64,000 nt of DNA from Candidatus Poribacteria bacterium (GTDB lineage: Bacteria; Poribacteria; WGA-4E; WGA-3G), in assembly GCA_965198235.1 (NCBI GenBank), contig OZ240248.1:4998881-5062880 (forward strand). Reading direction: 5' to 3'. The number at the start of each line of letters is the position of its first letter. The first letter of the stretch is position 1. Shown one piece after another: positions 19,736 through 54,545 of this stretch. The position numbers and the translations under genes were made by a program. The notes beneath the pieces are model-generated. The model was not told the DNA's origin, did no database searches, and was given only the letters and a program-made list of their open reading frames with translations.

Positions 19736-19886
19736 TTTTCGGTAAAGTTCAGCCTCAGAAGTTTTCTACACGAAAACCTTGTTGAAGACTTTTGAGGCAA
19801 CCTTAATTTGGGCTTGTAGCCACGCTTAAGCATTTTCAAAGCGGTCTTCGGACAGGTTATCAAATATGGTTAGAAGGAGTGGTTTG

Positions 19887-20555
19887 ATGAAATATCTTTT
19901 TTCAATCGTTGTAAGTTGGTGTTTTCTCGTACTCGTAGCCTCCTTCGCTTTTGCGGGAGAGCAAGTATGGTCATTTGAAGCGGATGCAGACGACTGGGAA
20001 CCTGCTAACGGTTCTTGGAGTATTGAAGATGGCATTTATAAACTCGCCAAAGGCGGTAGAGCCGAGCACTCTCTCGTCGGTGACGCTGAGTGGGAGGACT
20101 ACACTGTTGAGGCGAAGGTTCGGCTTGATGAGGGAAATTGGGCAGGTGTTGTGTTTCGCGCCCAAAGCGAGATGGAATACTATGTTTACTATCTCAATGT
20201 CCCGAATAACAAAACTGAGCTATGGCGACATAAGACAGGGGCATGGGACGCTCGTGACAAGATCGGCGAACTCGCCGGAGCTAACATAACTGTCGCGAAC
20301 GGCGAATGGTTTGACATGCGAATCGTCTTAGAAGGCACTTCGATGAAACTCTGGATTAACGGTGAAGACCAGGGTGAACTTAAGGATGAAACCGGTGCTG
20401 GATACCCCGCCGGGCAAGCCGGTGTCTGGGCGTGGGAAACTGCCGCGAGTTTTGATGATGTCACGGTCTCTGGAGACGCTATCGTCGGTCTTACTCCGGT
20501 GGAGCCGCAGGATAAATTGGCGACGACATGGGGACGTATTAAACAACGTTTTTAG
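19887..20555 (+). CDS. Exported DUF1080/LamG-like jelly-roll protein with TTW-type tail (tandem paralog)
   Basis: Start at the ATG at 19887, after AAGGAG. About 60% identical by eye to the previous gene. Tail QDKLATTWGRIKQRF. Confidence 0.75.
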   Translation: MKYLFSIVVSWCFLVLVASFAFAGEQVWSFEADADDWEPANGSWSIEDGIYKLAKGGRAEHSLVGDAEWEDYTVEAKVRLDEGNWAGVVFRAQSEMEYYVYYLNVPNNKTELWRHKTGAWDARDKIGELAGANITVANGEWFDMRIVLEGTSMKLWINGEDQGELKDETGAGYPAGQAGVWAWETAASFDDVTVSGDAIVGLTPVEPQDKLATTWGRIKQRF

Positions 20556-38645: not shown

Positions 38646-40187
38646 GTGATAAACCTTTGTAATGTCCTAAATAGTTCGATACGTCTACAGGTGCAGGCAC
38701 ATTGGGAACCGATTGCGGATTCTACGTTTCGTATGCACAAGACATCGCCAGAACACGTTGAACTCTTCGATCTGTCACCAAACCATCCTGTCAAAGAATA
38801 CAGGACAGACGCTTTCAAGGCATTTCTTCCGTCATCAACTGTAGGGGTGGGTGATGTTTGGGAACTTGATCCGAACAGTGTTGTCTCTTTCCTGCGCCAG
38901 TTTCATTCCGGTGTGACCACACCCGTATATCACGGTGCGGAGGGTGCGTTCGCCTGCTTACGTGCTTTTTCGTCAGTTTACGCTGAGATTGTTTTCCGAA
39001 TTCATGCGGACTTCACGTTGGAAAGCGTCGCTTATGAGAAGTGGCGTGCCGCCAACGCCTCGGAGGACGACGATAATAAATCCCGTTTTGTCCCCTCCCA
39101 TTTCGTCGGACGATTGTTAATCAATTTGAAAGAAGGAACGGTTCGGGTGTTTTCGCTCTATCTGCCGGCACGCAATAGTAACGTTGTCATCAGTGCTTTT
39201 GGCGGTATTGATATGGTTTATGTGCCGCGTATGGAACTCCTCGCTACGGACGAGACCGACAAAGACGAGATCGCGTGGGATGCTGCTATTACAACGGAAG
39301 AGGCACACCGGATGTTGGAATTGAAGTTCTATAAATTCGCTGAGATTGATTGGCTACCGATTGATGAGGCAGTTGCACAGGCGAAAGCGACCAATCGTCC
39401 GATCCATGCAATCCTCGTCTGGGGGTGTTTAGACGATGAATCCTGCTGAGCGAACGGCAAATATTTGAGGGCGGGTCCGCTCTCCGATTCAGAAGTGATA
39501 ACAACGCTCAACGAGAAGTTTGTCAATACATGGGTGCTCCTCCGGGAATTGCCAGAACTAATAGGTGGTGCGAAAGGCGAGGCGGTCAGCCTCGTCGCAA
39601 AAGAGATAAAACGCCACTACACTGACTCTGTAGATATTCTGGCACTCACCCCCGATGCGGAAGTTATCATGCATCAGCCGGAGATGGCTCTACCGTACAG
39701 GAACCAGGCGCAAGCGTATCTAAAAGTGTTACAGCATGCTGTGGACGCATTTGAAGGGAGACGCACCCGTGTAGGCAACGCGTCAAAATTAGATCGGAAC
39801 CCGATCAGCTTGGGGACGGAGTTGATGGAGGTTTTACACGTTTTTAGCACATCCGACACCAATACCCCGACTTACACAGTTATTGAAATTGATACGACAC
39901 CGTTTGAACGCGGTGGGATCCTCCACATTGAAATACATGTGGGTGAGAACAGGTTGGCAGGAACGTTTGAATTGTTTGATGCAGATACCGAAATTTCTAC
40001 AAAAAATGATGAAGATGAAACTCTGGATGGTGCATGGAACGTTTCATCCGGTGGTGTAGGGCACATCTTTCACGATTTTAGTCGGGGTCGGCGTTTCAAG
40101 TTAGTCGCTACAGGGGCAAACAACCAAAAGAGTGTTTCCAATGCTTTTCTGGCACGTGTCTCTATCGTCCCACCGTTTGAAAAATAG
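38646..40187 (+). CDS. Candidate selenoprotein A: unknown N-domain, thioredoxin-like fold with C-U motif (TGA 39447-39449 read as Sec), beta-rich C-domain
   Basis: ORFs 38646-39449 and 39465-40187 share a frame and are separated only by one TGA. The junction reads ..PIHAILVWGCLDDESC-U-ANGKYLRAGPLSDSEVITTLNEKFVNTWV. The second half has no SD or ATG. GTG start after GGAGG, and no signal peptide. Confidence 0.6.
39467..39484 (+). promoter_or_regulatory. SECIS-like hairpin 17 nt downstream of TGA (locus A)
   Basis: GAGGGCG-GGTC-CGCTCTC: 7 bp including one G-U pair, with apical loop GGUC. Confidence 0.45.
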
Positions 40188-40314: not shown

Positions 40315-40357
40315 GAATTAGGCAACTTTCTTGTCCGTTACCCGCGTCACTATATAT
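40315..40357 (+). promoter_or_regulatory. ECF-type promoter motif P1 (GAATTAGGCAAC-N18-CGTCACTATATAT)
   Basis: AAC ends at 40326 and CGTC is at 40345-40348. About 120 nt upstream of the PD40 gene. Confidence 0.5.
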
Positions 40358-40477: not shown

Positions 40478-41518
40478 ATGAAACATAAGTCGGTTTCTCC
40501 TTTTTTAGGAGTTGGAGGCTGCACCAAATTTCTAATATTCAGTTATGCTATCAGTGCCCTACTCATGTTCAGCGGCAGCACTGCTGTATGGGCAAAAGCC
40601 CCGGAGACAGCGAAAATTACATTTATGTCAAAGCGGGACGGTAACGCTGAGATCTATATCATGAACCCCGACGGGAGTGAGCAAGTCAATCTCACCCAAC
40701 ATCGTGCAGCCGATTATACACCAGCCTGGTCGCCAAACGGGAAACAGATATTGTTCAGCTCAGATCGAGATGGAATTTTTGATTTGTATCTTATGGACGC
40801 AGATGGCACAAATGTCCGGAAGGTGTTCGCAAGCAGCAAATACAGATGGGAGCCTGCCTGGTCGCCCGATGGTAAACGAATTGCCTATGCACAAGGAGAT
40901 CCAGGAAAGGCAAAACTACAGTTTGGGTTACGATTTGTCCCTTACGCCGATCTCACACTTTACATCGCAACACTAAATGGAGACTCCGTTGAGAAATTGA
41001 CGGATGGATTTGGTCCGAGTTGGTCTCCTGATGGACACGAGATAGCCTTTGTGGTGGGTGGTCGCAAAAGTACACTACTGGGTATTTACGACTTGAGGAA
41101 ACGTTCCCAAAAAACGCTCATCTCAAAGAAGATGCCGTGGATATTTGATCCCAGCTGGTCTGCACAGGGTGACAGAATAGCTTTCGCGAAACTCGAGGGT
41201 GCTGCGTTTGATGCACAAGGTTTTCTTAGGTTTAAGAAGGGTACGATTTACACCATAGATAGTGCTGGGGGTGGACTTCATCAGATTACCGACGAGAACT
41301 CTTCTGACCCAACCTGGTCCCCAGATGGCAGCGAACTCATTTACAACTCTCGGGTGGGTTTTTCGCAACTCTTCAGAACGGGCTTGAACGGCGACAATCC
41401 AACACAACTGACGCATGACGGAAGTAATTTGAGTCCAGATTGGTTTGACCCCTTTTATAGCGTTTCGCCGTCGGCGCAATTGTTAACGACGATGTGGGGA
41501 AAAATCAAAGTGGATTAA
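40478..41518 (+). CDS. Exported PD40/TolB-like beta-propeller protein with TTW-type tail
   Basis: Signal peptide. Repeated (P)xWSPDG/NG blades. Tail [15 protein letters not shown]. Confidence 0.8.
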
Positions 41519-41607: not shown

Positions 41608-41650
41608 GAATTAGGCAACCGTTTTTCCGATCCTCCGCGTCACTATATAT
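41608..41650 (+). promoter_or_regulatory. ECF-type promoter motif P2
   Basis: GAATTAGGCAACC..CCGCGTCACTATATAT. AAC ends at 41619 and CGTC is at 41638-41641 (18-nt spacer). Confidence 0.5.
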
Positions 41651-41714
41651 CAACACGATATTTGTGTGACAAATTTTGGAAGATTCAAATGACTCCATAG
41701 GAGGAAGCGAAAAC

Positions 41715-42536
41715 ATGTTACGGACATTTACTGCTGCTTTTTCGAGTGTCATTATGCTATTGCTGGCAGCTTCTGCCAACGCGGGTTTGGATGAAGATCT
41801 CGTTTTTTATCTGACCTTTGATAACGTTAAAAATCAGACGATTATTGATGAATCTGGCAATGGTCTTGATGCAGAAATACTTGAGCATGTCGAGATTGTC
41901 AAGGGTAAATATGGAGATGCAATCCGTCTTAAAGGTCAAAGCGGGGATTGCGTTAATATCCCTGCTCAAGAGAAATTGAAAGTTATAGGCGAGATAACAA
42001 TGATGGCATGGATTTATTCTCCAGAAACATGGAACAACGAGAAGATGCATTGGCTGGAAAAAGATTGTCATTTCGTTGTTCCGATTGGTTGGGCGCACTG
42101 TTACGGTATCGCTGGTGTTGATGTCGGTAACGGACCAGAAATCTTTTTGTTTTTGGGATCACAGGTAGAGGGGAAATGGGACCGGCAGGAGTTCAGAACT
42201 CCACATAAAATGGGCGAAAAAAAATGGCATCACGTTGTCGGAAGTTACGATGGCGAAACCATGAAAATCTATGTGGATGGTACAGTCATAGGGGAAGAAA
42301 AGAAAAAATTCAATTTCTTTGGAGACAATGACGCGGACGTTCGGATCGGATGTGCAAAAGATGTCCCCCACCTTACATTCACAAACGGCTCTATTGATGA
42401 AGCTGCGGTCTGGCAACGAGCACTGAGTGATGATGAAATTAAACAAGCCATGACAGGGAACTTTCTCGCTGTTTCGCCGAGCGATAAAGTGGCGACGACT
42501 TGGGCGGATATGAAAAGAAGAGCAGTCGTTCCTTAA
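41715..42536 (+). CDS. Exported LamG-like domain protein with TTW-type tail
   Basis: Start set to the ATG at 41715 by comparison with the paralog at 43790 (RBS AGGAGGA). LVFYLTFDNVKNQT..DESGNG and IDEAAVWQRALSDDEIKQAM. Tail SDKVATTWADMKRRAVVP. Confidence 0.75.
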   Translation: MLRTFTAAFSSVIMLLLAASANAGLDEDLVFYLTFDNVKNQTIIDESGNGLDAEILEHVEIVKGKYGDAIRLKGQSGDCVNIPAQEKLKVIGEITMMAWIYSPETWNNEKMHWLEKDCHFVVPIGWAHCYGIAGVDVGNGPEIFLFLGSQVEGKWDRQEFRTPHKMGEKKWHHVVGSYDGETMKIYVDGTVIGEEKKKFNFFGDNDADVRIGCAKDVPHLTFTNGSIDEAAVWQRALSDDEIKQAMTGNFLAVSPSDKVATTWADMKRRAVVP

Positions 42537-42579: not shown

Positions 42580-43602
42580 ATGAAAACAATACGGTTGTTA
42601 GTTTTTGCCATATTGAACATATTGATGCTGAACGTAAGCGTTTGCCTCGCTTTCGCAACAGCACCCACAACCGCCAAAATTCTGTTCACCTCTTCACGGG
42701 ACGGCAATTATGAGGTCTACATCATGAATCCGGACGGTAGTGAACAGGTGAATTTAACACAACATCGCGCAAATGATTTTCAAGCCGTATGGTCCCCCAC
42801 TGGGGAGCAGATTCTTTTTGTCTCCGATCGCGATGGCGGCATCCGAGACTTGTATCTGATGGACCCCAGTGGATCCAATGTCCGACGCGTTTTCACGAGG
42901 AAACGAAAGTCTTATAGGGATTCTCCGACGTGGGCACCCGATGGCAACCAGATTGCTTACGTACACCTGAATTGGAACGGTGTCAGGTTCCATATCTACG
43001 TTGCAATCTTGGGTAAACAAAAAGAGGAACACCTCGTTGAGGGTAGACGTCCGACGTGGTCACCCGATGGAACGAAAATAGCATATATGTCTTATATTGT
43101 AGATACCTGCCGAATTGCTCTTATTGACCCCCACACACGAAGGCAAAAACACCTCCTATCGAGGAAAGCAACGCCTTGGCAAAATCATCCATTTTGGTCG
43201 GCTACGGGGAGCAAACTCGCTTTTTCTTGGAATAAGAATCCGTTACCGCGCCTTTTGCCGGGTGATCGTTTCCCATCCGTATGGCTGGATAAGGAGACAA
43301 TCTATATTGTGAACAGCGACGGGACCGATCTCCGAGAACTTCTGGATGAAGCTGGGCCCAGAGCACAGTATCCAGTGTTGTCGCCAGACGGGAAAGAGGT
43401 ACTTTATACACAAGAAATTAAGGGTCGCCTACAAATTTTCAAACTTGATGTACACAGTGCCACTCGGGCACAGTTGACAAATATCGGGCGAGTCTTTGAG
43501 GCGAATTTCGGAGGGGATTGGTTCGATCCTGTGTATTCGTTGCCTGTTTCGCCACAATCGCGACTGCTAAGCACAGTATGGGGAAAAGTAAAAAAGAAAT
43601 AG
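42580..43602 (+). CDS. Exported PD40/TolB-like beta-propeller protein with TTW-type tail (paralog)
   Basis: Signal peptide and WSP(T/D)G repeats. Tail QSRLLSTVWGKVKKK. Confidence 0.8.
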   Translation: MKTIRLLVFAILNILMLNVSVCLAFATAPTTAKILFTSSRDGNYEVYIMNPDGSEQVNLTQHRANDFQAVWSPTGEQILFVSDRDGGIRDLYLMDPSGSNVRRVFTRKRKSYRDSPTWAPDGNQIAYVHLNWNGVRFHIYVAILGKQKEEHLVEGRRPTWSPDGTKIAYMSYIVDTCRIALIDPHTRRQKHLLSRKATPWQNHPFWSATGSKLAFSWNKNPLPRLLPGDRFPSVWLDKETIYIVNSDGTDLRELLDEAGPRAQYPVLSPDGKEVLYTQEIKGRLQIFKLDVHSATRAQLTNIGRVFEANFGGDWFDPVYSLPVSPQSRLLSTVWGKVKKK

Positions 43603-43682: not shown

Positions 43683-43725
43683 GAATTAGGCAACCGTTTT
43701 GTCTGTCTCCCGCGTCATTATATAT
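43683..43725 (+). promoter_or_regulatory. ECF-type promoter motif P3
   Basis: GAATTAGGCAACC..CCGCGTCATTATATAT. CGTC is at 43713-43716 with an 18-nt spacer. The downstream leader is nearly identical to that after P2. Confidence 0.5.
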
Positions 43726-43789: not shown

Positions 43790-44611
43790 ATGTTACGGAC
43801 ATTTATTGCTGCTTTTTCGAGTGTCGTTATACTGTTGTTGGCAGCTCCTGCCAACGCAGGTTTGAATGAGAAACTCGTTTTTTATCTGACGTTTGATAAT
43901 GTTAAAGATCAGACAGTTGTTGACGAATCTGGGAATGGTCAGGACGCAGAGATACTTGAGAACACCGAGATTGTCAGGGGCAAATATGGGAATGCCATTC
44001 ATATTACAGATGATGGTCAGGATTGCGTCAGTATTCCTTCTCAGGAAAAACTGAAAATTACAAGCGAAATAACAATGATGACCTGGATTTATTATCAAGA
44101 AACATGGAAAGGCAAAAGGATGTTGCATTGGCTTGATAAAGGCTGCCATTCGGGAGACGGTTGGGCTGGAACTTACGGTATCGGCAGTTCCGATATCGGT
44201 AACGGACCAGAGATTGTGTTGTTTTTCGGGTCGCGGGAGAAACAGGGGATTACGGACCGGCATGAATTCGCAGTTCTACACAAAATGGGTGTTCAAAAAT
44301 GGCATCATGTTGCTGGGAGCTACGATGGGAAAACCATGAAAATTTATTTAGATGGTAAAGTCATAGGTGCGGAAAAGAAGAATTTCAATCTCTTTGGTGG
44401 TAATAACGTGAACCTCAGGATCGGATGCGCAAAAAACAGCCCGCAGTATGCATTTGCCAACGGTTCTATTGACGAAGCCGCAGTCTGGCAACGAGCATTG
44501 AGTGATGATGAAATCAAGCAGGCGATGGTAGGGGACTTCCTCGCTGTTTCACCGAGTGATAAAGTTGCAACGACTTGGGCGGATGTGAAAAAGAGGATGA
44601 TAGCCCGTTAG
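43790..44611 (+). CDS. Exported LamG-like domain protein with TTW-type tail (paralog of 41715-42536)
   Basis: About 70% identical by eye to 41715-42536. Tail SDKVATTWADVKKRMIAR. Confidence 0.75.
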   Translation: MLRTFIAAFSSVVILLLAAPANAGLNEKLVFYLTFDNVKDQTVVDESGNGQDAEILENTEIVRGKYGNAIHITDDGQDCVSIPSQEKLKITSEITMMTWIYYQETWKGKRMLHWLDKGCHSGDGWAGTYGIGSSDIGNGPEIVLFFGSREKQGITDRHEFAVLHKMGVQKWHHVAGSYDGKTMKIYLDGKVIGAEKKNFNLFGGNNVNLRIGCAKNSPQYAFANGSIDEAAVWQRALSDDEIKQAMVGDFLAVSPSDKVATTWADVKKRMIAR

Positions 44612-44724: not shown

Positions 44725-44767
44725 GAATTAGGCAACCGTTTTGTTTGTTCCCCGCGTCACTATATAT
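44725..44767 (+). promoter_or_regulatory. ECF-type promoter motif P4 (upstream of the selenoprotein B / ECF sigma unit)
   Basis: GAATTAGGCAACC..CCCGCGTCACTATATAT. CGTC is at 44755-44758 with an 18-nt spacer. The following GAATCTACGCGAA is shared with P1. Confidence 0.45.
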
Positions 44768-44908
44768 CGAGATTAGAATCTACGCGAAGAACAACTTTTT
44801 GTATAAGTGTTGTTTGCGTAGAATGTTCTTGTTAATTGCTATAACGTGAGTTCAATATGAGAAATTGGTTCACTATATAGGTCGTGTTGAACAAAAAGGG
44901 ACATAACA

Positions 44909-45037
44909 CCCAAGATGCATATTTTGCTCCGTAGGAGCAACATGTCTATAGCAGTCGTCCGACACGACGTTTCCGCGCCGTAGGTGCGGTATGTAGTATC
45001 ACCAGAGATAGCTCCGCTGGGAGTGCGAGTACTTGGG
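44909..45037 (+). repeat. Cluster of four short GC-rich hairpins enclosed by CCCAAG/CTTGGG
   Basis: GCTCC-GTA-GGAGC (44926-38), GTCGT-ccgac-ACGAC (44954-68), CCGCGCC-GTA-GGTGCGG (44973-89), GCTCC-gctg-GGAGT (45011-24). The outer pairing is 44909-14 with 45032-37. Confidence 0.4.
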
Positions 45038-45186
45038 CATCGGGTTTTCTATTCTCACTGCGAAGCAATAGTACTGCTCTGGAGCGATGGAATTTGTCCG
45101 TCACCTGCTTGGAATAGGCGTGATATATCCTGTCGAATCTTTCTAATCTTTATGTCAACTCCACGTTACTATAAGGAGATTTGAAG

Positions 45187-46866
45187 ATGAAAATCTTAAC
45201 CGTTGGGTTTCTTATTCTGGTAATGATGAGTGGAGTGCTGAATGCCGATAACCACTCAACAACTCACAACAAAATTACACTGAACCTTGACGGGACCCCA
45301 GAAGTATCTGTCAAAGGCTTCATTGCTCCGATTGAATATACACAATACAATTTCCATGTGGAGTGGGATGAACTGGCAAATCTGCGGGTTGCTGAGCCGG
45401 AGAAGCGGTATTCTGCATCGGTTTTCCATGCCTTTCTGCCCTCCGAAGCGGTTTCTGTAGGCGATCTCTGGCAGATTGAGGAAGAGGGGGTGCTAGAATT
45501 ACTAAGGCAACTGAACCCCAATCCGAGGCTGGACCTGGACATCAATATGGGAGATTCCCGTGGACTGTGGGCATGTCTGCGCGCCTACAATGATGAATTT
45601 GCTAAGATTGTGTTCCGCATCCATGCAGAATTCGTCTTAAACGATGGTCGGTTCACTCCATCTCAGTTTACAGGACATCTTGTTATTGATCGAATTAGAG
45701 AGAGGATTGCCTCCTTCAAGATGTATGTTCCTGAAGGTGTACTGAATTTTGATGTCGGGCGAAACAGTATCGGAGCTATAGATGTCGGTTTTTGCCCGCA
45801 AATGGAACTCCGTGCTAAGGCACCAGAAGTGGTATCGGACATCAAGTTTGCGGAGTCCATCACCCAAGAAGCGGCTGAGCGGGTGCTGATACTGCGTTTC
45901 TACAGATCGCAACAAATCAACTGGGTGTCTCTGGAAGAAGCGTTAGAGACGGCACCGGCGCAACGAAAACCTGTTCATGTTGTTTCGATAGATGGACCGC
46001 TTGCGGATGAGTCGTGCTGAGGGAGTGGCAAAACTCTGAGGGCAGTTGTCCTCTCTGACGATAAAATTATAGAGTTCTTGAACGAAAACTTTGTTAACAC
46101 ATGGGTGCCGAATTCTGAATTAGGGCGCGTCTCCAGTTTGCGGGAGCCGATTGACAAGAGACGCGAGCGCGAAGGTAAAACGTTTGACACAAGCCACGCC
46201 TTGGCACAAGCAATTATAAAGGGTTGGAAAGAGGGGTCGCCTGTGGATTGTCTGGTTATCTCGCCGGAGTTTGAAGTGATGGGTAGGCAACCTGTCAACG
46301 AAATCGGGTGGTCCAACGGAGTAGCATTTTACATGAATTTCCTCCAAGAGTCCTTAGAGGGGAAACTACCAGGGTTCGGTGAGGCCGCCTCGAAACCTTT
46401 ACCGAAACCTAGTTCAGAGTCTTACTCTGGATTAGGTGCTGTTGTGCCAGAGGATTTAAAAGTTATACTCACCCGTGAAAAGCCCCAGCAGGAAGTTCTC
46501 AGCATTTTCCGGACACCAGAATCCGGCTATCAAGATTATACTGTCGTTGAAATTGATACGACAGCGTTTAAAGGCGGCGGTATGCTTACTATTGATATCT
46601 TAGTAGGAAGTGCTGAATCCAAAGGCTCGTTCGATCTTTATGATGGTGACACTGAACTTCCAACACAAGGTATGCCTCGCGGCGCGCTTACCTCTGCGTG
46701 GGATGTTCCTCCCGGTAAAAGAGGAACAATCAAGTATCGTTTTGACCGGGGTAAAGTTTTTAAGTTAGGAGCTACAGGCAGTTGGTTCAGTAAGGAAGGG
46801 AACATCAACGCTTTTCTCGCTACAATTTCTGTAGCCCCTATGGCGAAAGAAAGTAACGAACATTAA
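45187..46866 (+). CDS. Candidate selenoprotein B (exported): unknown N-domain, thioredoxin-like fold with C-U motif (TGA 46018-46020 read as Sec), beta-rich C-domain
   Basis: ORFs 45181-46020 and 46078-46866 share a frame with only one TGA and no other stop between them. The junction reads ..PVHVVSIDGPLADESC-U-GSGKTLRAVVLSDDKIIEFLNENFVNTWV. ATG at 45187 after AAGGAG. Signal peptide MKILTVGFLILVMMSGVLNA. Confidence 0.6.
46038..46053 (+). promoter_or_regulatory. SECIS-like hairpin 17 nt downstream of TGA (locus B)
   Basis: GAGGGC-AGTT-GTCCTC: 6 bp including one G-U pair, with G and U in the apical loop. Same offset from the TGA as in locus A. Confidence 0.4.
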
Positions 46867-46962: not shown

Positions 46963-48291
46963 ATGAAAAACGACGATGTCGAATTAATTCAAGGCAGTCT
47001 TATAGGCGATGAAAAAGCCTTTGCGAAGTTGGTGAGAAAATACCAGAAGCAGGTTCACGCACTCGCGTGGCGGAAAGTAGGCGATTTCCACATCGCTGAA
47101 GAGATTACGCAGGATACCTTTTTAAGGGTTTATAAGAAACTGGCAACGCTGAAGGATCCGCATCGTTTTGCAGGATGGCTTTATAGAATCGCTGCACGCC
47201 AATGCCATGCCTGGCTCAGAAAGAAACGGATGCAAACGCAATCGCTTGAAGACACAGACATCGAACTGATAGAGGGAGGGACGTATTCTCAATACATTGC
47301 CGAGGAGCAGGAGAAAGCTGCGGTAGATGCGCAACGCGATATTGTCCAAAGGTTACTCGCTCGGCTGCAGGAAAGTGAACGCACTGTCGTCACACTCCAC
47401 TACTTCGGGGAGATGACCTGTGAAGAGATTAGCCGATTTTTGGGTGTATCAGAGAGTACCGTTAAGAGTCGGCTCCGCCGTGCGCGGCACCGCTTAAAGA
47501 AGGCGGAACCCATGATCCGAGAGGCACTGGAAGGCTTCCAAGTTAGGGCGAATCTCACCGAGAATATCATGCAAGAAATTGCCCGTATCAAACCTACTCC
47601 ACCGCCCAGTGGTAAACCGTTTGTGCCGTGGACAATTGCCGCCTCAACCCTTGTTCTCGTTGTGATGGCACTTGGAGCAAGTAGTCAGTACTTAACACGT
47701 TTCCAACAACCTTACAATTTTGATGCCACATCCGAAATGACAGTAGAACTCATTGACACGCCTATGGTTCTGAATCTCGCATCGAAACCGGATGTGCGGA
47801 CCCAAGCCGGTAAATCTGTGACACCGAGTAAAGGCGACGGACATACCCCGAGCACAAATCAATCAGAATATGTGCCGAGATTTCTTTCTGCCCAAGCAAA
47901 GAACGTCGTGCTTGATAATAAACAGCCTTCGCAGGATGTTTTGAGCATTTTCCAAACACCGGCGGCGGGCTATCAAGACTACACTGTCATTGAGATTGAT
48001 ACGACGGCATTTAAAGATGGCGGCACGGTCACTATCGACCTTTGGATTGGGAGCGCAGAGGCTGCTGGTGCTTTCATTCTGTTTACAAGCGACAGCGAAA
48101 TCCCCACAGACAGTATGCCTAAGGTTATACTCACCTCAGCATCAGGAATCATACCCGGTAAATCAGGGCGGATCACGCACCGTTTTGACGAAGGCACACG
48201 CTTTAAGTTAGGAGCTACCGGTAATTCGTTCAGTGGGGAAGGGAAGGTCAATTCCTTTCTCGCAAAAATCTCTATAGACGCTACGTTGTGA
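46963..48291 (+). CDS. ECF sigma factor fused via one TM helix to an extracytoplasmic domain homologous to the selenoprotein C-domain
   Basis: Region 2 (ITQDTFLRVYKKL..FAGWLYRIAARQCHAWLRKK) and region 4 (ERTVVTLHYFGEMTCEEISRFLGVSESTVKSRLRRARHRLKK). TM helix WTIAASTLVLVVMALGASS. C-terminal ..DVLSIFQTPAAGYQDYTVIEIDTTAFKDGG..FKLGATG..NSFLAKISI parallels 46490-46850. Confidence 0.8.
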   Translation: MKNDDVELIQGSLIGDEKAFAKLVRKYQKQVHALAWRKVGDFHIAEEITQDTFLRVYKKLATLKDPHRFAGWLYRIAARQCHAWLRKKRMQTQSLEDTDIELIEGGTYSQYIAEEQEKAAVDAQRDIVQRLLARLQESERTVVTLHYFGEMTCEEISRFLGVSESTVKSRLRRARHRLKKAEPMIREALEGFQVRANLTENIMQEIARIKPTPPPSGKPFVPWTIAASTLVLVVMALGASSQYLTRFQQPYNFDATSEMTVELIDTPMVLNLASKPDVRTQAGKSVTPSKGDGHTPSTNQSEYVPRFLSAQAKNVVLDNKQPSQDVLSIFQTPAAGYQDYTVIEIDTTAFKDGGTVTIDLWIGSAEAAGAFILFTSDSEIPTDSMPKVILTSASGIIPGKSGRITHRFDEGTRFKLGATGNSFSGEGKVNSFLAKISIDATL

Positions 48292-48630
48292 TAATCTTAA
48301 TCCGCGAACTTGTATTGAAACTTTCGCAACTCCTGCCTAATCGCTGTATTTCTCGTTCTGCCGTTTTCTCTCCACTTATTTGACAAAAGGTAAACCCTCC
48401 AGCTCGTCCTACGTTTTAACTTTCCAATATACCGCCAGTAGAATCATTTGTACACTTTGAATCGCAGGAAATCTATGAGGAAATCCCACGAACCTGTATG
48501 TATGAGTTGATTCATGGTATAATTCTACCAATAAATTCGTTTGTCCAAATTTAATCTACATAGGACTTACACAAACACGGATGTCTGGGACTACAAGTGA
48601 GCCTGATTTTTACGTTTTTTCTGAACTTAT

Positions 48631-48658
48631 GCAACCCTTTCACCAGCAAATTGCGTCA
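48631..48658 (+). promoter_or_regulatory. Diverged ECF-type promoter motif P5
   Basis: GCAAC-N18-CGTCA with the same AAC-to-CGTC spacing (48636-48653), about 105 nt upstream of ATG 48768. The flanks are not conserved. Confidence 0.3.
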
Positions 48659-48767
48659 TTTAACAATGACTAACAATGACAAACGGTAGAATTTATCGGA
48701 CAAACAGTGCAATAAACCGAAGAATGGGGACATAGTGCCAAAGTCCTACTCTCCTAAGGAGAAAGCA

Positions 48768-50612
48768 ATGTTAAAGAAATGTTTACCCTTATGCTTCACC
48801 GTGTCGATATTTCTGATAATCCTTCTATTCGCCACTTTCAATGTGGTAGAAGCCCTACCAGATTCATCTAAGGTATCCGAATCGGCACCCGTAGATACAC
48901 CTTCTCAAAAATCTGAAAGCGCACCAGTTCCTGTTCCAGACAACAGTGTTCTGAACCTAATTCCTGAAAAAGCATTAGGCGTTATCTACTGTCCGAGTCT
49001 GCTGGAATTGGATAACAGAATTAACAAGATAGTAACTGAGCTCTCCCCTCAAATCGAGGTCCCCGATGTATCTATGCAGATTTTGAAGAGTATTTTCGGA
49101 GATGCGTTTGAAAGTTTAGCCGATTTTGAAGAAATTGGGTTGGATTTGAACCAAGATTTCGCGGTCTTCATTACCAGTTTGCAGCCACTGCATCTCTCGG
49201 CACTGGGGCATCTAACGGGTCCTAAGGCAATGAAACAGATAATTGAAGCCGAAGGCGGCACACCCTCGCAATATAAAGGCGTAACCTATTGGAGTGCCAG
49301 CGAAGGTAATAAGAGTTTTGCTATTTTGGAGAATATCCTCGTTTTTTCAACGCCTCGCGGGATTTGTGAGAACGTTATTGATACCTATAACGGAGCGGGG
49401 TATGCTATCACACAGAACCCAAATTACACCACTTTTCTTATAGATATTTTGGAGGGTGACGATCAAGTGGGGGTGTGCGTTGATGTTGAAGCCATTATTG
49501 CCACCTTCGATAGTCTGCCTGAAGAGGAATTGGAGTCAATAGTAAACGCTCTCCAAGATGGGGATCCGATATCCAAGTCAATTGCATCCTTCCTTGAAGA
49601 TATACCTGGAGAGGAAATAGGAAGCATTGAGCAGTTCCGATCAATAAACGTCCGGCTGGAGGTAGAGGGAACCGGTGTGCAAATTAAGCCGTCCGTGAAA
49701 TTCAGAAGCGATAGTGAATTTCTGAAAGTCTTGGAAGAAAGGTCTGGTGAATTAACTTTCCTCGACGAACTCCCAAATCGTGCAGCTATGAATGGTGCCG
49801 TTCAAGGTTGCCCACAGTTGCTGGTTGAGCTGAGTAGGTTCTGGTTAGATACTCTTCCCACGGTAACTCCAGAACAACAGGCGCAGCGGGATTTGCTCCT
49901 CAAACAGGTGAAAGATTTTCATGAATCTCTTGCAGATCGATGGAGGGTTTCTTTCGGTTTTGAGGATACGCTTTTACCGACTTATCTGTTTATCTATGAA
50001 CTGAAAGATGAACAGGCTGCCAGGGTCTATATGGATGAGGTGTTTCTGGAACATCTCAGCGATCAAGACGCTTATGCAGGTAAGTCGATCATGCACAACC
50101 GCGTTGAAATTAAAAGTTACATCTTTCCTGATCTCACAGAGGGGCTTCCAGAGGAATTGCCCGAAGAAATCTCTGGTTTGTTGCCCACCAAATGGCACTG
50201 GTATTATGCATTTACCGAAGGGCAGCTCCTTTTCGCAACGGGTACAGGTCCAGAATCAATTCAAATGGCACTTGATAGGAAAGCAGGAAACGAGGCGAAA
50301 TTTTCTGAGCATCCGAGTTATCAAAAACTCGTCGACATATTAGGGACTGACTCCAACATCTTCTGTGCGATATCTCCAGCCATCGCGGCTAAAAACTCTT
50401 TGCCGATGTTTGGGAAGATGGATCCGGACAATGCCGCGGTAATGCAAATACTGGCAGGGATATTCATGAGTCTCCCTGAGAACTATAGTATCGGTTTTTC
50501 CGCCAAAAGAACGGACAATAGCATTGATGCGAAACTGCTCATTGACCTTGGTGACTTCAAGCAGCTTATACAAATGATGGAAATGATGGCTCAAATGAGG
50601 CAGAGGCAATAG
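48768..50612 (+). CDS. Membrane-anchored or exported hypothetical protein (about 614 aa)
   Basis: Start at the ATG at 48768, after AAGGAG. N-terminal hydrophobic helix, then a Ser/Pro-rich linker with the repeat SESAPV. No domain I can name confidently. Confidence 0.6.
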   Translation: MLKKCLPLCFTVSIFLIILLFATFNVVEALPDSSKVSESAPVDTPSQKSESAPVPVPDNSVLNLIPEKALGVIYCPSLLELDNRINKIVTELSPQIEVPDVSMQILKSIFGDAFESLADFEEIGLDLNQDFAVFITSLQPLHLSALGHLTGPKAMKQIIEAEGGTPSQYKGVTYWSASEGNKSFAILENILVFSTPRGICENVIDTYNGAGYAITQNPNYTTFLIDILEGDDQVGVCVDVEAIIATFDSLPEEELESIVNALQDGDPISKSIASFLEDIPGEEIGSIEQFRSINVRLEVEGTGVQIKPSVKFRSDSEFLKVLEERSGELTFLDELPNRAAMNGAVQGCPQLLVELSRFWLDTLPTVTPEQQAQRDLLLKQVKDFHESLADRWRVSFGFEDTLLPTYLFIYELKDEQAARVYMDEVFLEHLSDQDAYAGKSIMHNRVEIKSYIFPDLTEGLPEELPEEISGLLPTKWHWYYAFTEGQLLFATGTGPESIQMALDRKAGNEAKFSEHPSYQKLVDILGTDSNIFCAISPAIAAKNSLPMFGKMDPDNAAVMQILAGIFMSLPENYSIGFSAKRTDNSIDAKLLIDLGDFKQLIQMMEMMAQMRQRQ

Positions 50613-50747: not shown

Positions 50748-53700
50748 TTAGAGTTCTGCACTGACCGTCATTTCCAAGCGGTGTTCGGGTTTCCGCTGTT
50801 TTGTGGAGAGTAAGCGGTAATTGAGCCGAAGCAGAAGGTCGGTAAATTTTCGCAGTCTGTAATCTGCGGTTGTGCGGACTTCGTGGCTGATGCCTTCGTA
50901 GAAAGTGTACTGTGCAAAGGGTATGCCACCCTTACTCTCGCCATAGCCGAGTTTATAGTTGACATCAATGCGTCCTTTACCAATAAGACTATACGTGAGG
51001 CGATTTTCAAATGAGAAGGTCCGCGTTCTGGCTTCTGGCTCCTCGTCAAGCTGCTCCTTGTCAATTGTACGATTATATCCTCCGATACCGCTCCATCGCA
51101 CGGAATTGCTGAGTTCATATCGGAGGCTCAATTCAGTCGTCTGCTCAAATTGGCGTAGGTCTGAGATAGGCGTTGATGGAAGGTCTCCCCTGTTCGTTAT
51201 AGTCTCGGTTTCCTGAGTGAGTTCTTCCACTTGGAGTTGACTGTATTTCTCAGTTTCCCGGCGTTGTTCCCAGTTTACACCGAGGGACATACGTTGCGTT
51301 GGGTTCACGGAGAGACCGACATCCCATGTCCTGTGCCGCCTGTGGCGTTCTTGATTATTAATCCGACGATTGAGGGTCTCGCCAACACGAAGGTTGAACT
51401 CGAAACTGAATGCTGGTGATGGCGAGAATTCGAGGCGATGGTGTTGATTCAACCGACCAAAAAGCGTTTCTGAGCCTTGTAGACTTTGGAGCAGATAGAG
51501 GGACACCGCCTCCTCTACCTCCTGTTCCTCGGTCAGCCACAGGCGCGTTTGACCTCTGAGGGCATTTAGAAACCATTCTAAGCGAGACAGGCGTGGGCTT
51601 CGTGCCGCGATTGTGTTGGATAAAGATGGTGTTTGTTGATTCCCTTCTTGGGTAGATGATGACCGAGTCGGGCGCAAGCTATCACGTTTCAACATTGATT
51701 CACGATGCTGTTGTTGTCTTGCTCTGGCACGCCGTGTGAAAAACTGGCGGGGTTGAAAACGCACTCGGAATTCTGCATCTACCGCTGTTGTCGGTTTATC
51801 ACCCACATTTTGATAAATCTTGACATAAGTGCCCTCCTCGGGATCCTCTACGTAGTGCAGGTCATCCAACTTTACGTAGTATCCTTCACCGGGTTGAAGC
51901 AGAACACCAGTGTGTGGATGGATGTCGGTATAGACTTCGCGGCGTTGGCTTGTTAGTTTTTTGTCTAATTCATAGGCGATTTCTATATCAATTGCCCGAC
52001 TGAGTGGTGTGAGCTGGAGATTGACATCCGCGAGTTGCGTCGTTGTATTCGCACCGAGATCGGTGTGTGCTTTCAACATCCGGCGCGCAATGTTTGCTGT
52101 CAGATTCACCCCTCCGTTGAGAAAGGATTGTTGTTGTGAAAGGACGCCTACCTTCCAAGTCCGTGCTGTGGTATTTCGCTGCCAATCCGACAAACCGATA
52201 GGCTCATCATCAACAGTAAGCAACGGTTCTTTAGCAAAAGCCTCCTCAAGTTCATAACTGGTGTTCAAAGATACCCAGTTGAAATCAGCGAGGTCAATAC
52301 GTCCAGTTGCGCGGTTCCGCTTTCGGTTGAGCGTAGCATTACGCGCCTCGCTCGACTCCACTCTTCCCAGTGTTCCTATAATTCTGAATGGACCGAGAGG
52401 ATACGACAGATTACCTTCTTGACGTGACTTCTGTAGCGATTGTGTCCTTGTTGAATCTGCCCCCTCCATCCGGGAACTGCTACGATAGTCGTCCCAACGG
52501 AGATTCGGCAACCTCTTCAGTAATTGCGTTCCTGCAGACGTGCTCTGTTCCGACTCTACTGAATTCTTCTCTTGTCCAATTATAGGCAGCGTGCTTTCCC
52601 GCGTGAGGGTAGGGCTAACTCGTCCACTACCTAAACGCCGGTTGAAGTTGACCCCCCAGTTGAAATTGTTGCGGATCGTTGCGTTTGCAGTAGGTAAAAC
52701 TTCTGTTTCATCTGTGGTCGCGGTGGCCTCCTGAACGGTTCCCTCGCGTTCTGGGTCTTTCTCTTCGCTCCTACCGACTCCCGCGTCAACCTCCAGCCAA
52801 CCTGTGGGAATCATTCGGATGTCGAAGTTCATGGTTCTCTCATCTTGGGAAGTTCGCGGGCTGCCCGCTGTGTCGAGCAGGAACGCATCATCAAATCCCT
52901 CTGTGGCGTATTGTGTTTCGTAACGGGAGCGGGAACGGTTGCTGCTTGCGGCACCCACAGGCACGAAGTTAGCATCCATCGACCGTATGTCGAGGTTTGT
53001 GGTCAGTTTAGGACGCAGCTGATCCGTCCATGTTGCAAAGTCCCAATCGGCATAGCCGATCAGTTTCCACGCCCGACTTACCTCTTTCCGATCGACAGCA
53101 GAGTAGGTATTTTTATCAAGATTACTATAGGCGAATTCGCCTTGAATCCACGCCTGTTCTGTAACGTTCAGACGACTCTCCAGTCCCCATACAGTATGCT
53201 TTTGTGGTGGTATGAGGGGCGATTCGTCTTCCTTAGGATTAAGGATGTTTTGGCGAAGTGCCTCCAGTTCTACATCTTCAAACGTGATTAGAGACTGTTC
53301 TGGTTGATTCAGATCTGCTTCAACAGCGTAGGACGCTCCAAAAGTTAAACGTTCACCCGGCAGTGTGAAGACGCTGCTAAGTCCGTAAAGATTCTGTTGA
53401 TACGCCCGATCTTCCGGGATGTATTCAAAGTCGATCCGAATCACATCGTTGCTCGTTATGAGATGCTTACTGTTAAACTCGACAATTGGGTCTCCATATT
53501 CGCGGATGATGTAATCATTGTTTTCGCCGCGCCGCATCCTTTCACCGTTCAGCCAAACGATTTCACTGCCTGCTTTTACAAGGACGTATTGTCCATCAAC
53601 TGTGAGTCGATATTCACTGCGTCCTTCCTCACCGCGCAGGACTAAACTTGTAGACTGGCCCTTCGGAATGGCAGTCGGAATGAAGTGAAAGTCCACCCAT

Positions 53701-54545
53701 TTGAAATCGCCTTCAACCTGTACCCCCTCTAATGCGCGTGGAAAAAAAATAAACTCTGATGCCCCGAGCGAACCTTCAAAGTCTCCTAAAGTCCCCCTCA
53801 TGTTCGGATGCGTAATACGAATCAATTTCTGATCGATGTCCTGAATATTTTCGGTTGTGCCTTCGGGTTGGATAGGCAAATCTTGGTCGGATAGCAGTGC
53901 CAAGACGGTGATATTTTCAGAGGCTTTACCTTCTACATTGACGCGGAGTTCTTGATTCGGCGACACGCCACGCCCACTTCCAACTGAAATACCGAATGTT
54001 TGACTTCCAGACACCTCTAATTGAGATGCGCCATCGCTCGTAGAGGGGATACCCCCGAGTTCGCCGAAAGGTTGTCCGGGCTGTCTTTCGGATTCGTCCA
54101 TTGTGGAAGGCTCGCGAGTCATTTCTATCTGTGGATTCTGCTCACCGTAAAGGTCGCGTTTATAGACCTGTTTAATCGCGAACGGCAATGTCCGGTAGGT
54201 TATCTTAAGTTTAGACGGTTTGTCTGTAGGTGGCTCGGTAGTTGTGCGCTTACCTAAAGTGATTTTACCCAAATAGAAATCGATCTGATAGTCAACACCT
54301 CGCACGAGTACTTTTCCATCTGCTTCTGTTATCCGCTCGCTGTTTGGAAGGATCGGCGGGTACTTCACCGTAAAGTCTTGCTCTCCTGCTTCCAGTGCAA
54401 CGGACTCCGTCTTCTGGAGGACGGAAAAGGTGGGAAGTTCAAGGACTTTGGTTTCATCGTTAGGGGATTTTTGAACTGTACTACCGAGACGTGGTAGCAG
54501 CACACACAAACAGAAGGAAACAAGGAAAAGGAGTGGGATACGCAT
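50748..54545 (-). CDS. Very large exported protein, probable outer-membrane beta-barrel (function unknown)
   Basis: 1265 aa. Signal peptide MRIPLLFLVSFCLCVLL. Long stretches of alternating-polarity beta-strand-like sequence rich in Y/R/N/T/L. Confidence 0.6.
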   Translation of the reverse strand: MRIPLLFLVSFCLCVLLPRLGSTVQKSPNDETKVLELPTFSVLQKTESVALEAGEQDFTVKYPPILPNSERITEADGKVLVRGVDYQIDFYLGKITLGKRTTTEPPTDKPSKLKITYRTLPFAIKQVYKRDLYGEQNPQIEMTREPSTMDESERQPGQPFGELGGIPSTSDGASQLEVSGSQTFGISVGSGRGVSPNQELRVNVEGKASENITVLALLSDQDLPIQPEGTTENIQDIDQKLIRITHPNMRGTLGDFEGSLGASEFIFFPRALEGVQVEGDFKWVDFHFIPTAIPKGQSTSLVLRGEEGRSEYRLTVDGQYVLVKAGSEIVWLNGERMRRGENNDYIIREYGDPIVEFNSKHLITSNDVIRIDFEYIPEDRAYQQNLYGLSSVFTLPGERLTFGASYAVEADLNQPEQSLITFEDVELEALRQNILNPKEDESPLIPPQKHTVWGLESRLNVTEQAWIQGEFAYSNLDKNTYSAVDRKEVSRAWKLIGYADWDFATWTDQLRPKLTTNLDIRSMDANFVPVGAASSNRSRSRYETQYATEGFDDAFLLDTAGSPRTSQDERTMNFDIRMIPTGWLEVDAGVGRSEEKDPEREGTVQEATATTDETEVLPTANATIRNNFNWGVNFNRRLGSGRVSPTLTRESTLPIIGQEKNSVESEQSTSAGTQLLKRLPNLRWDDYRSSSRMEGADSTRTQSLQKSRQEGNLSYPLGPFRIIGTLGRVESSEARNATLNRKRNRATGRIDLADFNWVSLNTSYELEEAFAKEPLLTVDDEPIGLSDWQRNTTARTWKVGVLSQQQSFLNGGVNLTANIARRMLKAHTDLGANTTTQLADVNLQLTPLSRAIDIEIAYELDKKLTSQRREVYTDIHPHTGVLLQPGEGYYVKLDDLHYVEDPEEGTYVKIYQNVGDKPTTAVDAEFRVRFQPRQFFTRRARARQQQHRESMLKRDSLRPTRSSSTQEGNQQTPSLSNTIAARSPRLSRLEWFLNALRGQTRLWLTEEQEVEEAVSLYLLQSLQGSETLFGRLNQHHRLEFSPSPAFSFEFNLRVGETLNRRINNQERHRRHRTWDVGLSVNPTQRMSLGVNWEQRRETEKYSQLQVEELTQETETITNRGDLPSTPISDLRQFEQTTELSLRYELSNSVRWSGIGGYNRTIDKEQLDEEPEARTRTFSFENRLTYSLIGKGRIDVNYKLGYGESKGGIPFAQYTFYEGISHEVRTTADYRLRKFTDLLLRLNYRLLSTKQRKPEHRLEMTVSAEL

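Follow-up and report, generated by a model that had tools for sequence, protein, structure and literature searches.

A Poribacteria-specific family of membrane-tethered ECF sigma factors, one of which shares its periplasmic domain with exported candidate selenoproteins

C-terminal extensions are the second most common type of regulation among extracytoplasmic function (ECF) sigma factors, occurring in 19 groups (PMC7826278), and extensions that contain a transmembrane (TM) segment are known from ECF263, ECF48/52/53, and IutY (PMC7826278, PMC8999054). Fused ECF sigma factors with membrane-spanning sensors are predicted in many groups; experiments have been carried out on just IutY and SCO4117. 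In IutY of Pseudomonas putida, an ECF243 sigma/anti-sigma hybrid, the sigma factor is freed through proteolysis by Prc and RseP, while SCO4117 has a carbohydrate-binding sensor, and proteolytic activation has been proposed for SCO4117 and ECF48/52/53 (PMC8999054). RsgI anti-sigma factors, for their part, sense polysaccharides and thereby regulate their target genes (PMC6852018, PMC4711584); in the biomass-sensing RsgI/SigI systems of Clostridium thermocellum, the extracytoplasmic sensor is a module of the kind found on the regulated enzymes, and the signal travels via a juxtamembrane domain and RseP cleavage (PMC6852018, PMC10328401, PMC12203970). This work describes a 442-residue protein from a Candidatus Poribacteria bacterium, in which an ECF sigma factor is joined through one TM helix to an extracytoplasmic beta-sandwich domain (the C-domain). 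Its gene lies in a 64,000-nucleotide stretch of contig OZ240248.1 (positions 4,998,881 to 5,062,880; assembly GCA_965198235.1), referred to here as the window, directly downstream of a gene for an exported, thioredoxin (Trx)-like candidate selenoprotein. Directly tethered ECF sigma factors form a modular family that is specific to Poribacteria and includes this protein, and the sensor of this member is borrowed from the expanded family of exported selenoproteins to which its neighbor belongs. The coordinates of all features are collected in Table 1.

The sigma-fusion open reading frame (ORF) begins with ATG, with GGAGG located 8 nucleotides upstream. The encoded parts follow one another in the order ECF sigma core, 37-residue cytoplasmic tail, TM helix, juxtamembrane segment, variable spacer, and C-domain of approximately 120 residues. 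An earlier reading of the DNA from its letters and ORFs (the initial annotation) had described residues 1 to 190 as a standard ECF sigma factor with regions 2 and 4, and both Pfam and TIGR02937 agree. Besides the regions given in Table 1, Pfam places Sigma70_r4_2 at residues 126 to 178 (E 7e-16) and Sigma70_ECF at residues 7 to 181. Only sigma2 and sigma4 are found by Pfam, without r1 or r3, as is characteristic of ECF (group 4) sigma factors, and Pfam detects nothing over residues 190 to 442. The generic sigma70-ECF model TIGR02937 scored 98.8 bits against a cutoff of 42.9 and was the sole NCBIfam model above its cutoff; the specific NCBIfam sigma models all fell below theirs, the best being SigW (109.6 versus 209). 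The closest solved structure to the sigma core by sequence is that of Bacillus subtilis SigW (PDB entry 5wuq, E 1.5e-23).

The single TM helix proposed initially (residues 223 to 240) corresponds to the sole hydrophobic segment of the protein, WTIAASTLVLVVMALGA at residues 223 to 239. The Kyte-Doolittle maximum for a 19-residue window is 1.98 at this position, and the second-best window elsewhere in the protein reaches 1.47 and lies within the beta domain. Three Lys or Arg residues flank the helix on its N-terminal side and one on its C-terminal side. With the sigma core necessarily in the cytoplasm, the final ∼200 residues lie on the extracytoplasmic side. The linker LTENIMQEIARIK had been called anti-sigma-like, a label that was not borne out: Pfam gave no match on residues 181 to 325 at E values of up to 10, and the stretch of ∼37 residues between sigma4 and the helix has no Cys or His motif and no recognizable FecR_N or zinc-binding anti-sigma (ZAS) domain. 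When a database was queried with the tail-TM-juxtamembrane module, the matches were all short ORF fragments that begin at the internal Met184 and run into a frameshift; they gave no evidence for free-standing anti-sigma versions and carried no taxonomic information.

The initial annotation had judged the C-domain by eye to be roughly half identical to that of the adjacent selenoprotein and more distantly related to that of the second Trx-like gene in the window (38646-40187). Pairwise comparison gave 59% identity over 125 residues (E 4e-55) for the former and 42% (E 1e-25) for the latter, confirming that the sensor and the C-domain encoded directly upstream are paralogous. In a neighbor-joining tree of 240 C-domains, 49 sigma C-domains and three remnants form one clade, which is nested among the selenoprotein C-domains. 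The alignments and the tree suggest that the sigma-borne module was derived by duplication from the C-terminal module of the expanded, exported Trx-like selenoprotein family. Identity between the C-domains of sigma factor and neighbor is 51.9% at the same locus and 52.3% across loci; such near-equal values indicate a single ancient duplication and vertical inheritance since then, without concerted evolution.

Modeling of the C-domain with AlphaFold2 (AF2) from a 43-sequence alignment yielded an all-beta structure of nine strands, with a predicted local distance difference test score (pLDDT) of 91.4 and a predicted template-modeling score (pTM) of 0.86. The domain matched neither a Pfam model nor a sequence relative in the PDB. 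A Foldseek comparison, which had been suggested at the outset, gave generic matches only: those in the PDB are to beta-sandwich or jelly-roll binding modules from many unrelated families (E 2.6e-6 to 1e-4, template-modeling scores of 0.4 to 0.6), among them the CorA copper-binding protein, PliG, the C-terminal domain of Clostridium perfringens enterotoxin (C-CPE), the C-terminal domain of Tk-SP, PPC and collagen-binding domains, CBM6/35, and GOLD. Some family members (P0014 and P0017) carry two beta-sandwich C-domains in tandem.

An exhaustive profile search of 1.84 billion representatives retrieved 363 proteins with the C-domain. Among the best 150 C-domain representatives, just one (P0185, 446 residues) has a sigma domain, and the remaining ones are mostly the post-TGA halves of Trx-like family members. 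The partner domains found across 145 representatives comprise eight BlaR1-type M56 domains, five caspase domains, two each of TonB_C and Lcl_C, and single instances of S9 peptidase, TIR, CsgG, and TPR. The eight BlaR1-type M56 proteins, which include at least one from Planctomycetota, carry the C-domain at the sensor position, and this location supports a sensor or binding role for it. Judged by these architectures, the C-domain is a promiscuous extracytoplasmic module, often located at the sensor position of membrane signal transducers. The initial annotation had held that its reading would fail if the domain were a common fold spread over unrelated proteins with no connection to ECF sigma factors. 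The first half of that description holds, given the M56, caspase, TonB_C, S9, TIR, and CsgG partners, and the second does not; promiscuity notwithstanding, linkage of the C-domain to the tethered sigma factor is tight within Poribacteria.

In both Trx-like genes of the window, the in-frame TGA lies in a DESC-U-(G/A)xGK motif. The same arrangement, a TGA within DE[SA]C-U-GSGK that creates an adjacent pair of Cys and selenocysteine (Sec), is present in all 161 Poribacteria paralogue copies. The family therefore shows the two features used to recognize a selenoprotein, namely, an in-frame UGA within a redox motif and translated conservation that continues past the stop. The one stop-free homologue seen (P0180) has Trp, encoded by TGG, at the Sec position. 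At positions +20 to +35 after the TGA, a putative SECIS hairpin with a 6-bp stem and an AGGU or AGUU loop is paired in 91 to 100% of 137 distinct sequences, with compensatory double changes at two of the six pairs; the region is coding and has no Rfam match. Together, the invariant TGA and the conserved pairing support the interpretation of the Trx-like proteins as probable selenoproteins. The Sec machinery genes (selA, selB, selC, and selD) are not located in the 64-kb window, in which no tRNA was found, and Rfam gave no match in the window or in the selenoprotein leader. For the C-domain, the linker, and the selenoprotein together, searches of Pfam, NCBIfam, and PDB sequences returned no matches other than weak ones to DUF255/Thioredoxin_7, and the ∼280-residue N-terminal domain of the family had none. 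The family is greatly expanded in Poribacteria, where it forms tandem arrays with 5 to 7 copies in a single 16-kb locus. The paralogue adjacent to the sigma gene is not the same orthologue throughout the genomes, its identity to the partner in the window ranging from 60 to 86%. As a separate observation, an insertion of ∼325 bp (44848-45170) lies between the ECF-type promoter and the selenoprotein start in the window and is absent from the closest relatives (loci L043 and L005); a degenerate copy of the ribosome-binding site and start region borders the insertion, which is not repeated elsewhere in the window and has no Rfam match.

The covalent sigma-TM-extracytoplasmic fusion reported initially is well conserved, with at least 120 database clusters of 441 to 448 residues that are 79 to 95% identical to it over their full length. 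All clusters with a source name, and all related genome loci retrieved, come from Candidatus Poribacteria, a group of sponge symbionts. When genomes representing species were scanned, 222 stretches that encode the C-domain were identified, and all 75 loci kept are from Poribacteria, many of them on complete chromosomes of 5 to 6 Mb. Among orthologues, mean pairwise identity is 87% for sigma2, 92% for sigma4, 85% for the cytoplasmic tail, 80% for the TM helix, 86% for the juxtamembrane segment, 63% for the spacer, and 80% for the C-domain. Co-occurrence of the fusion with the Trx-like gene, which the initial annotation had proposed to survey, was complete: in 41 of the 41 loci that include upstream sequence, the gene immediately preceding that of the sigma factor belongs to the selenoprotein family. 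The gap between the two genes is 96 nucleotides in the window and typically 23 to 136 nucleotides across these loci, and no terminator is predicted between them in the window. Because the gaps are short, no terminator is predicted, and an ECF-type promoter precedes the pair, the two genes are very likely cotranscribed, as had been supposed.

Variation at the locus includes natural truncation and loss. In L001/L002 (two assemblies of one sample), a CAG-to-TAG change directly after the TM helix (L001 3656-3658, equivalent to codon 242 of the gene in the window) cuts off the periplasmic part while leaving the frame otherwise intact; the product of this amber allele resembles a site-1-cleaved form. 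At L080 (4175-6414), the cluster is missing entirely, the sigma gene included, and the space from the GH32 gene to the gene for a 1,265-residue protein is taken up by an IS605 OrfB/TnpB element and a LamG::C-domain chimera (P0050). At L003/L004 (L003 8770-10408), a DDE_3 transposase stands beside a C-domain remnant of 135 residues that is similar, in its N-terminal part, to the linker of the selenoproteins. These strain-level losses of the cluster (L080 and L003) imply that the sigma factor and its regulon behave as a dispensable unit. Two further genes are conserved neighbors of the sigma locus in most genomes, one encoding an exported DUF3352 protein of 625 residues (48735-50612) and the other, on the minus strand, the 1,265-residue protein, which has no family match (50748-54545).

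The same genomes encode paralogous tethered sigma factors in which the distal domain is exchanged. These include a sigma-TM-WD40 protein of 979 residues (L003 13008-15947) and a sigma-TM-BNR/sortilin propeller protein of 1,009 residues (L017 8854-11883). Compared with the sigma fusion of the window, the propeller paralogues are 62 to 67% identical in the sigma part and 44 to 66% identical in the next ∼115 residues. The alignment reveals a common chassis consisting of the tail (EPMIREALENFQITPNLTENIMREISRIKP..KP.VPW), the TM helix, and the segment QYLARFQ.PY.FDA.SE...SKPDVR.Q.G, after which the sequences diverge. Conservation of the juxtamembrane segment whatever the sensor suggests a common transmission step, which makes this segment a candidate module for signal transmission or site-1 cleavage. 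Another fusion, divergent from the first (L076 9168-10490; 440 residues), with a sigma part 56% identical to that of the main lineage, is located among selenoprotein genes. Its C-domain is 70% identical to the selenoprotein type versus 54% to the main sigma clade. Since it carries a C-domain of the selenoprotein type, the association of sigma factor and C-domain arose, or was renewed, more than once. A neighbor-joining placement that paired the L076 sigma C-domain with that of its neighbor was rejected, being contradicted by the pairwise identities. Tandem arrangement close to the primary locus is frequent among the paralogous tethered sigma genes, some of which are preceded by TGCAAC-N18-CGTCA at a distance of 53 to 79 nucleotides.

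A conserved block emerged when the sequences ahead of the sigma-adjacent selenoprotein genes were aligned, and it was then used in two scans: an extended 18-base pattern, GGCAACCGTTTTG-N11-CGTCA, was scanned with at most 3 mismatches, and its 12-base core, GGCAACC-N17-CGTCA, with at most 1 mismatch. In the window, the extended pattern gave 4 matches versus 0.09 expected by chance, and the core scan added a fifth, ahead of the DUF3352 gene. All five are intergenic, on the plus strand, and ahead of plus-strand genes in a cluster spanning 40.3 to 48.7 kb. Across 77 Poribacteria loci, there were 56 matches on the strand that carries the genes and 0 on the opposite strand; shuffled sequences gave 0 to 2. 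Forty-nine of the 56 are within 600 nucleotides upstream of selenoprotein, PD40, or LamG starts, and the (PD40-)selenoprotein-sigma unit follows a copy of the motif in 30 of the 37 sigma loci. ECF promoters combine an AAC-containing -35 element with a CGT-containing -10 element, as in TGAAAC-N16-CGTA of SigW, and are usually autoregulatory. The motif GGCAACC-N17-CGTCA has this AAC/CGT character and is, on its letters, a putative ECF promoter; a scan of the cluster for sigma-70-type promoters and terminators gave counts at or below background. All products of the candidate regulon have signal peptide-like N termini. The initial interpretation of the locus is supported in part by these results; the paralogue family with swapped sensors, the promoter, and the regulon had no place in it.

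A C-terminal tail of the form SP..K[VL][AS]TTW[GA].[IVM]K(K/R) is shared by the LamG and PD40 proteins of the cluster and by the product of an unrelated ORF (19866-20555). It is conserved in other Poribacteria loci and could serve as a sorting or recognition tag.

Table 1. Features of the sigma-fusion locus, in window coordinates
Feature	Coordinates	Strand	Evidence
Whole gene, ECF sigma-TM-beta-sandwich fusion, 442 residues	46963..48291	+	ORF, Pfam, database relatives
Sigma region 2, residues 23-89	47029..47229	+	Pfam PF04542 Sigma70_r2, E 1.1e-15
Sigma region 4, residues 126-180	47338..47502	+	Pfam PF08281 and PF04545; SigW structure 5wuq
Conserved cytoplasmic tail, residues 186-222, EPMIREALEGFQVRANLTENIMQEIARIKP...KPFVP	47518..47628	+	85% orthologue identity; common to WD40 and BNR paralogues
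Single TM helix, residues 223-240	47629..47682	+	Hydropathy 1.98; positive-inside charges; helix 224-248 in low-confidence AF2 model
Periplasmic juxtamembrane segment, residues 241-285, QYLTRFQQPYNFDATSEM...SKPDVRTQ.G	47683..47817	+	86% orthologue identity; kept in paralogues with other sensors
Variable spacer, residues 286-322	47818..47928	+	63% identity, least conserved region; coil predicted (AF2)
Periplasmic nine-strand beta-sandwich C-domain, residues 323-439	47929..48279	+	AF2 pLDDT 91.4; Foldseek
Operon partner, exported Trx-like candidate selenoprotein with paralogous C-domain; in-frame TGA at 46018-46020	45181..46866	+	
More distant selenoprotein paralogue, TGA at 39447-39449; signal peptide and promoter motif not seen	38646..40187	+	
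ECF-type promoter motif, ahead of selenoprotein-sigma operon	44731..44759	+	
Promoter motif, ahead of LamG gene 43790-44611	43689..43717	+	
Promoter motif, ahead of LamG gene 41676-42536 (then PD40 gene 42580-43602)	41614..41642	+	
Promoter motif, 1 mismatch in 12 core bases, ahead of PD40 gene 40478-41518	40321..40349	+	
Weaker motif copy TGCAACC-N17-CGTCA, ahead of DUF3352 gene 48735-50612	48630..48658	+	
Shared C-terminal tail sites	41460-41518, 42474-42536, 43549-43602, 44549-44611, 20493-20555		

The reading that we favor, with a probability of about 0.5, is that of an autoregulated, membrane-tethered, one-component ECF sigma factor that senses a target shared with the neighboring enzyme and is released by regulated proteolysis. 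The sigma factor would read GGCAACC-N17-CGTCA, resulting in positive autoregulation and in control of an envelope regulon of ∼12 kb, composed of the selenoprotein-sigma operon and the PD40, LamG, and DUF3352 genes for exported proteins. Following the logic of RsgI, its periplasmic module would bind the same target as the module of the enzyme, and target occupancy would control cleavage in the juxtamembrane segment. Site-2 intramembrane proteolysis, as in IutY, would then free the sigma factor for RNA polymerase. The proposal builds on the tethered architecture and its conservation, the invariable synteny, the paralogy of the C-domains, the distribution of the motif, the signal peptide-like N termini of the regulon products, the paralogues with exchanged sensors, the position of the C-domain in BlaR1-type proteins, the renewed domain exchange at L076, and the joint loss at L080. 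Several observations weigh against this proposal. There is no recognizable anti-sigma domain between sigma4 and the TM helix, and no protease gene was seen in the cluster. The motif is missing, at the stringency used, from 7 of 37 sigma loci, and several paralogous sigma-fusion genes have near-identical promoters (TGCAAC-N18-CGTCA); cross-recognition is therefore possible, and the regulon is not assignable to one sigma factor alone. The structural matches to the C-domain are generic, and the full-length AF2 model, built from 39 orthologues, has a pLDDT of 48 because the alignment is too shallow, so that only its secondary structure is usable.

Shared-target sensing has to be weighed against other explanations, the first being direct pairing, which the initial annotation had suggested in the form of homotypic domain interaction or competition. 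The periplasmic domain of the sigma factor would bind the paralogous domain of the cotranscribed, secreted selenoprotein, in homotypic or heterotypic fashion, and the enzyme would gate release either as a cosensor or via product feedback. Strictly conserved adjacency and cotranscription, the paralogy of the two C-domains, and the location of the second fusion lineage (L076), likewise among selenoprotein genes, all speak for such an interaction, and the tandem C-domains of P0014 and P0017 are compatible with domain-domain packing. We nevertheless regard it as unlikely and as less parsimonious than shared-target sensing. The near-equal identities within and across loci (51.9% and 52.3%) show no sign of partner-specific coevolution, the adjacent paralogue varies between genomes (60 to 86% identity to the partner in the window), arrays of 5 to 7 or more paralogues per genome would cross talk, and the C-domain occurs on unrelated proteins without any sigma factor. 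If pairing were true, a selenium-dependent periplasmic redox enzyme would be a cosensor gating the intramembrane release of a sigma factor that lacks an anti-sigma domain. Sensing of a paralogous domain on an enzyme would then represent a new signaling principle, one that couples the redox or selenium status of the envelope selenoprotein family to transcription in sponge symbionts. We give the same low standing to a generic envelope stress sensor, in which the juxtamembrane module is the real receiver, e.g., as a protease substrate, and the C-domain merely localizes or anchors the protein. The juxtamembrane segment matches sigma2 in its degree of conservation and is common to paralogues with unrelated distal domains, and the C-domain fold is a generic binding module also found on TonB_C and CsgG-type envelope proteins. 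Nonetheless, strong constraint acts on the C-domain too (80% identity), it occurs at the sensor position of BlaR1-type proteins, and the exchange of distal domains among paralogues argues for specificity residing in the distal domain.

Less probable still is a sigma factor that is active while tethered, in the manner of ToxR or CadC, bringing RNA polymerase to genes of exported proteins whose DNA lies near the membrane while the C-domain modulates oligomerization. Failure to detect an anti-sigma domain would fit such a mode of action, as would the physical clustering of the regulon around the sigma gene and the export of all its products, through which the genes could be brought close to the membrane by cotranslational export. 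Set against this, the tail between sigma4 and the membrane is just ∼37 residues long, and no sigma factor acting while tethered is described in the literature consulted, in which the membrane-bound fused ECF sigma factors are activated by proteolysis or predicted to be (PMC7826278, PMC8999054). Finally, the joining of a sigma gene to a separate downstream gene by an assembly or frameshift error, or in a pseudogene, has a negligible chance of being correct. The stop codon that splits the ORF after the TM helix in L001/L002 and the many short linker-module fragments on record might seem to indicate it, but the former results from one substitution (CAG to TAG) in a frame that is uninterrupted elsewhere, and the latter begin at the internal Met184 and end in frameshifted sequence. 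The intact ORF of 441 to 448 residues in at least 120 clusters, complete 5- to 6-Mb chromosomes included, rules out this explanation.

The fusion offers a tractable system for learning how a tethered sigma factor stays off and is then released, being compact (442 residues) and lacking a detectable anti-sigma domain, with natural sensor swaps, a defined candidate promoter, and a small local regulon. It could also provide an orthogonal one-protein transmembrane switch for synthetic biology. Moreover, the exported C-U selenoproteins of these uncultivated sponge symbionts, a very large and uncharacterized family, become accessible through it for the first time from the side of regulation. Poribacteria go unmentioned in the main text of the ECF classification paper, and literature searches for Poribacteria together with sigma factors or selenocysteine found nothing specific.

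Several described systems resemble the Poribacteria fusion in one respect and differ in another. Planctomycetal ECF sigma factors with large C-terminal WD40 extensions (ECF01-Gob) were reportedly described by Jogler et al. in 2012; propellers of the WD40 or BNR type are likewise carried by the Poribacteria paralogues, whereas the member described here has a small beta-sandwich. The M56 transducers BlaR1 and MecR1 share with it a related beta-sandwich at the extracellular sensor position, but their output is a zinc protease acting on a repressor and not a sigma factor. As in RsgI, the sensor module has its counterpart on an associated enzyme, here the cotranscribed one, at 59% identity and in a clade nested among selenoprotein C-domains. 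RsgI, however, is a separate anti-sigma factor with an autoproteolysing SEAL domain, and its SigI is a non-ECF sigma factor; in Poribacteria, the ECF sigma factor itself is tethered, and no RsgI domain was matched in it. In IutY and the actinobacterial ECF48/52/53 groups, an ECF sigma factor is likewise covalently joined via one or more TM helices to an extracytoplasmic sensor, forming a one-protein unit. Those proteins contain a FecR-type or ZAS anti-sigma domain, whereas the Poribacteria fusion has ∼37 residues without an anti-sigma match in its place, and the phylum, sensor fold, and regulon differ as well. The class of tethered ECF sigma factors is thus already known, if little studied, and what is new relative to its described members is the combination of a sensor derived from a selenoprotein family with no detectable anti-sigma domain.

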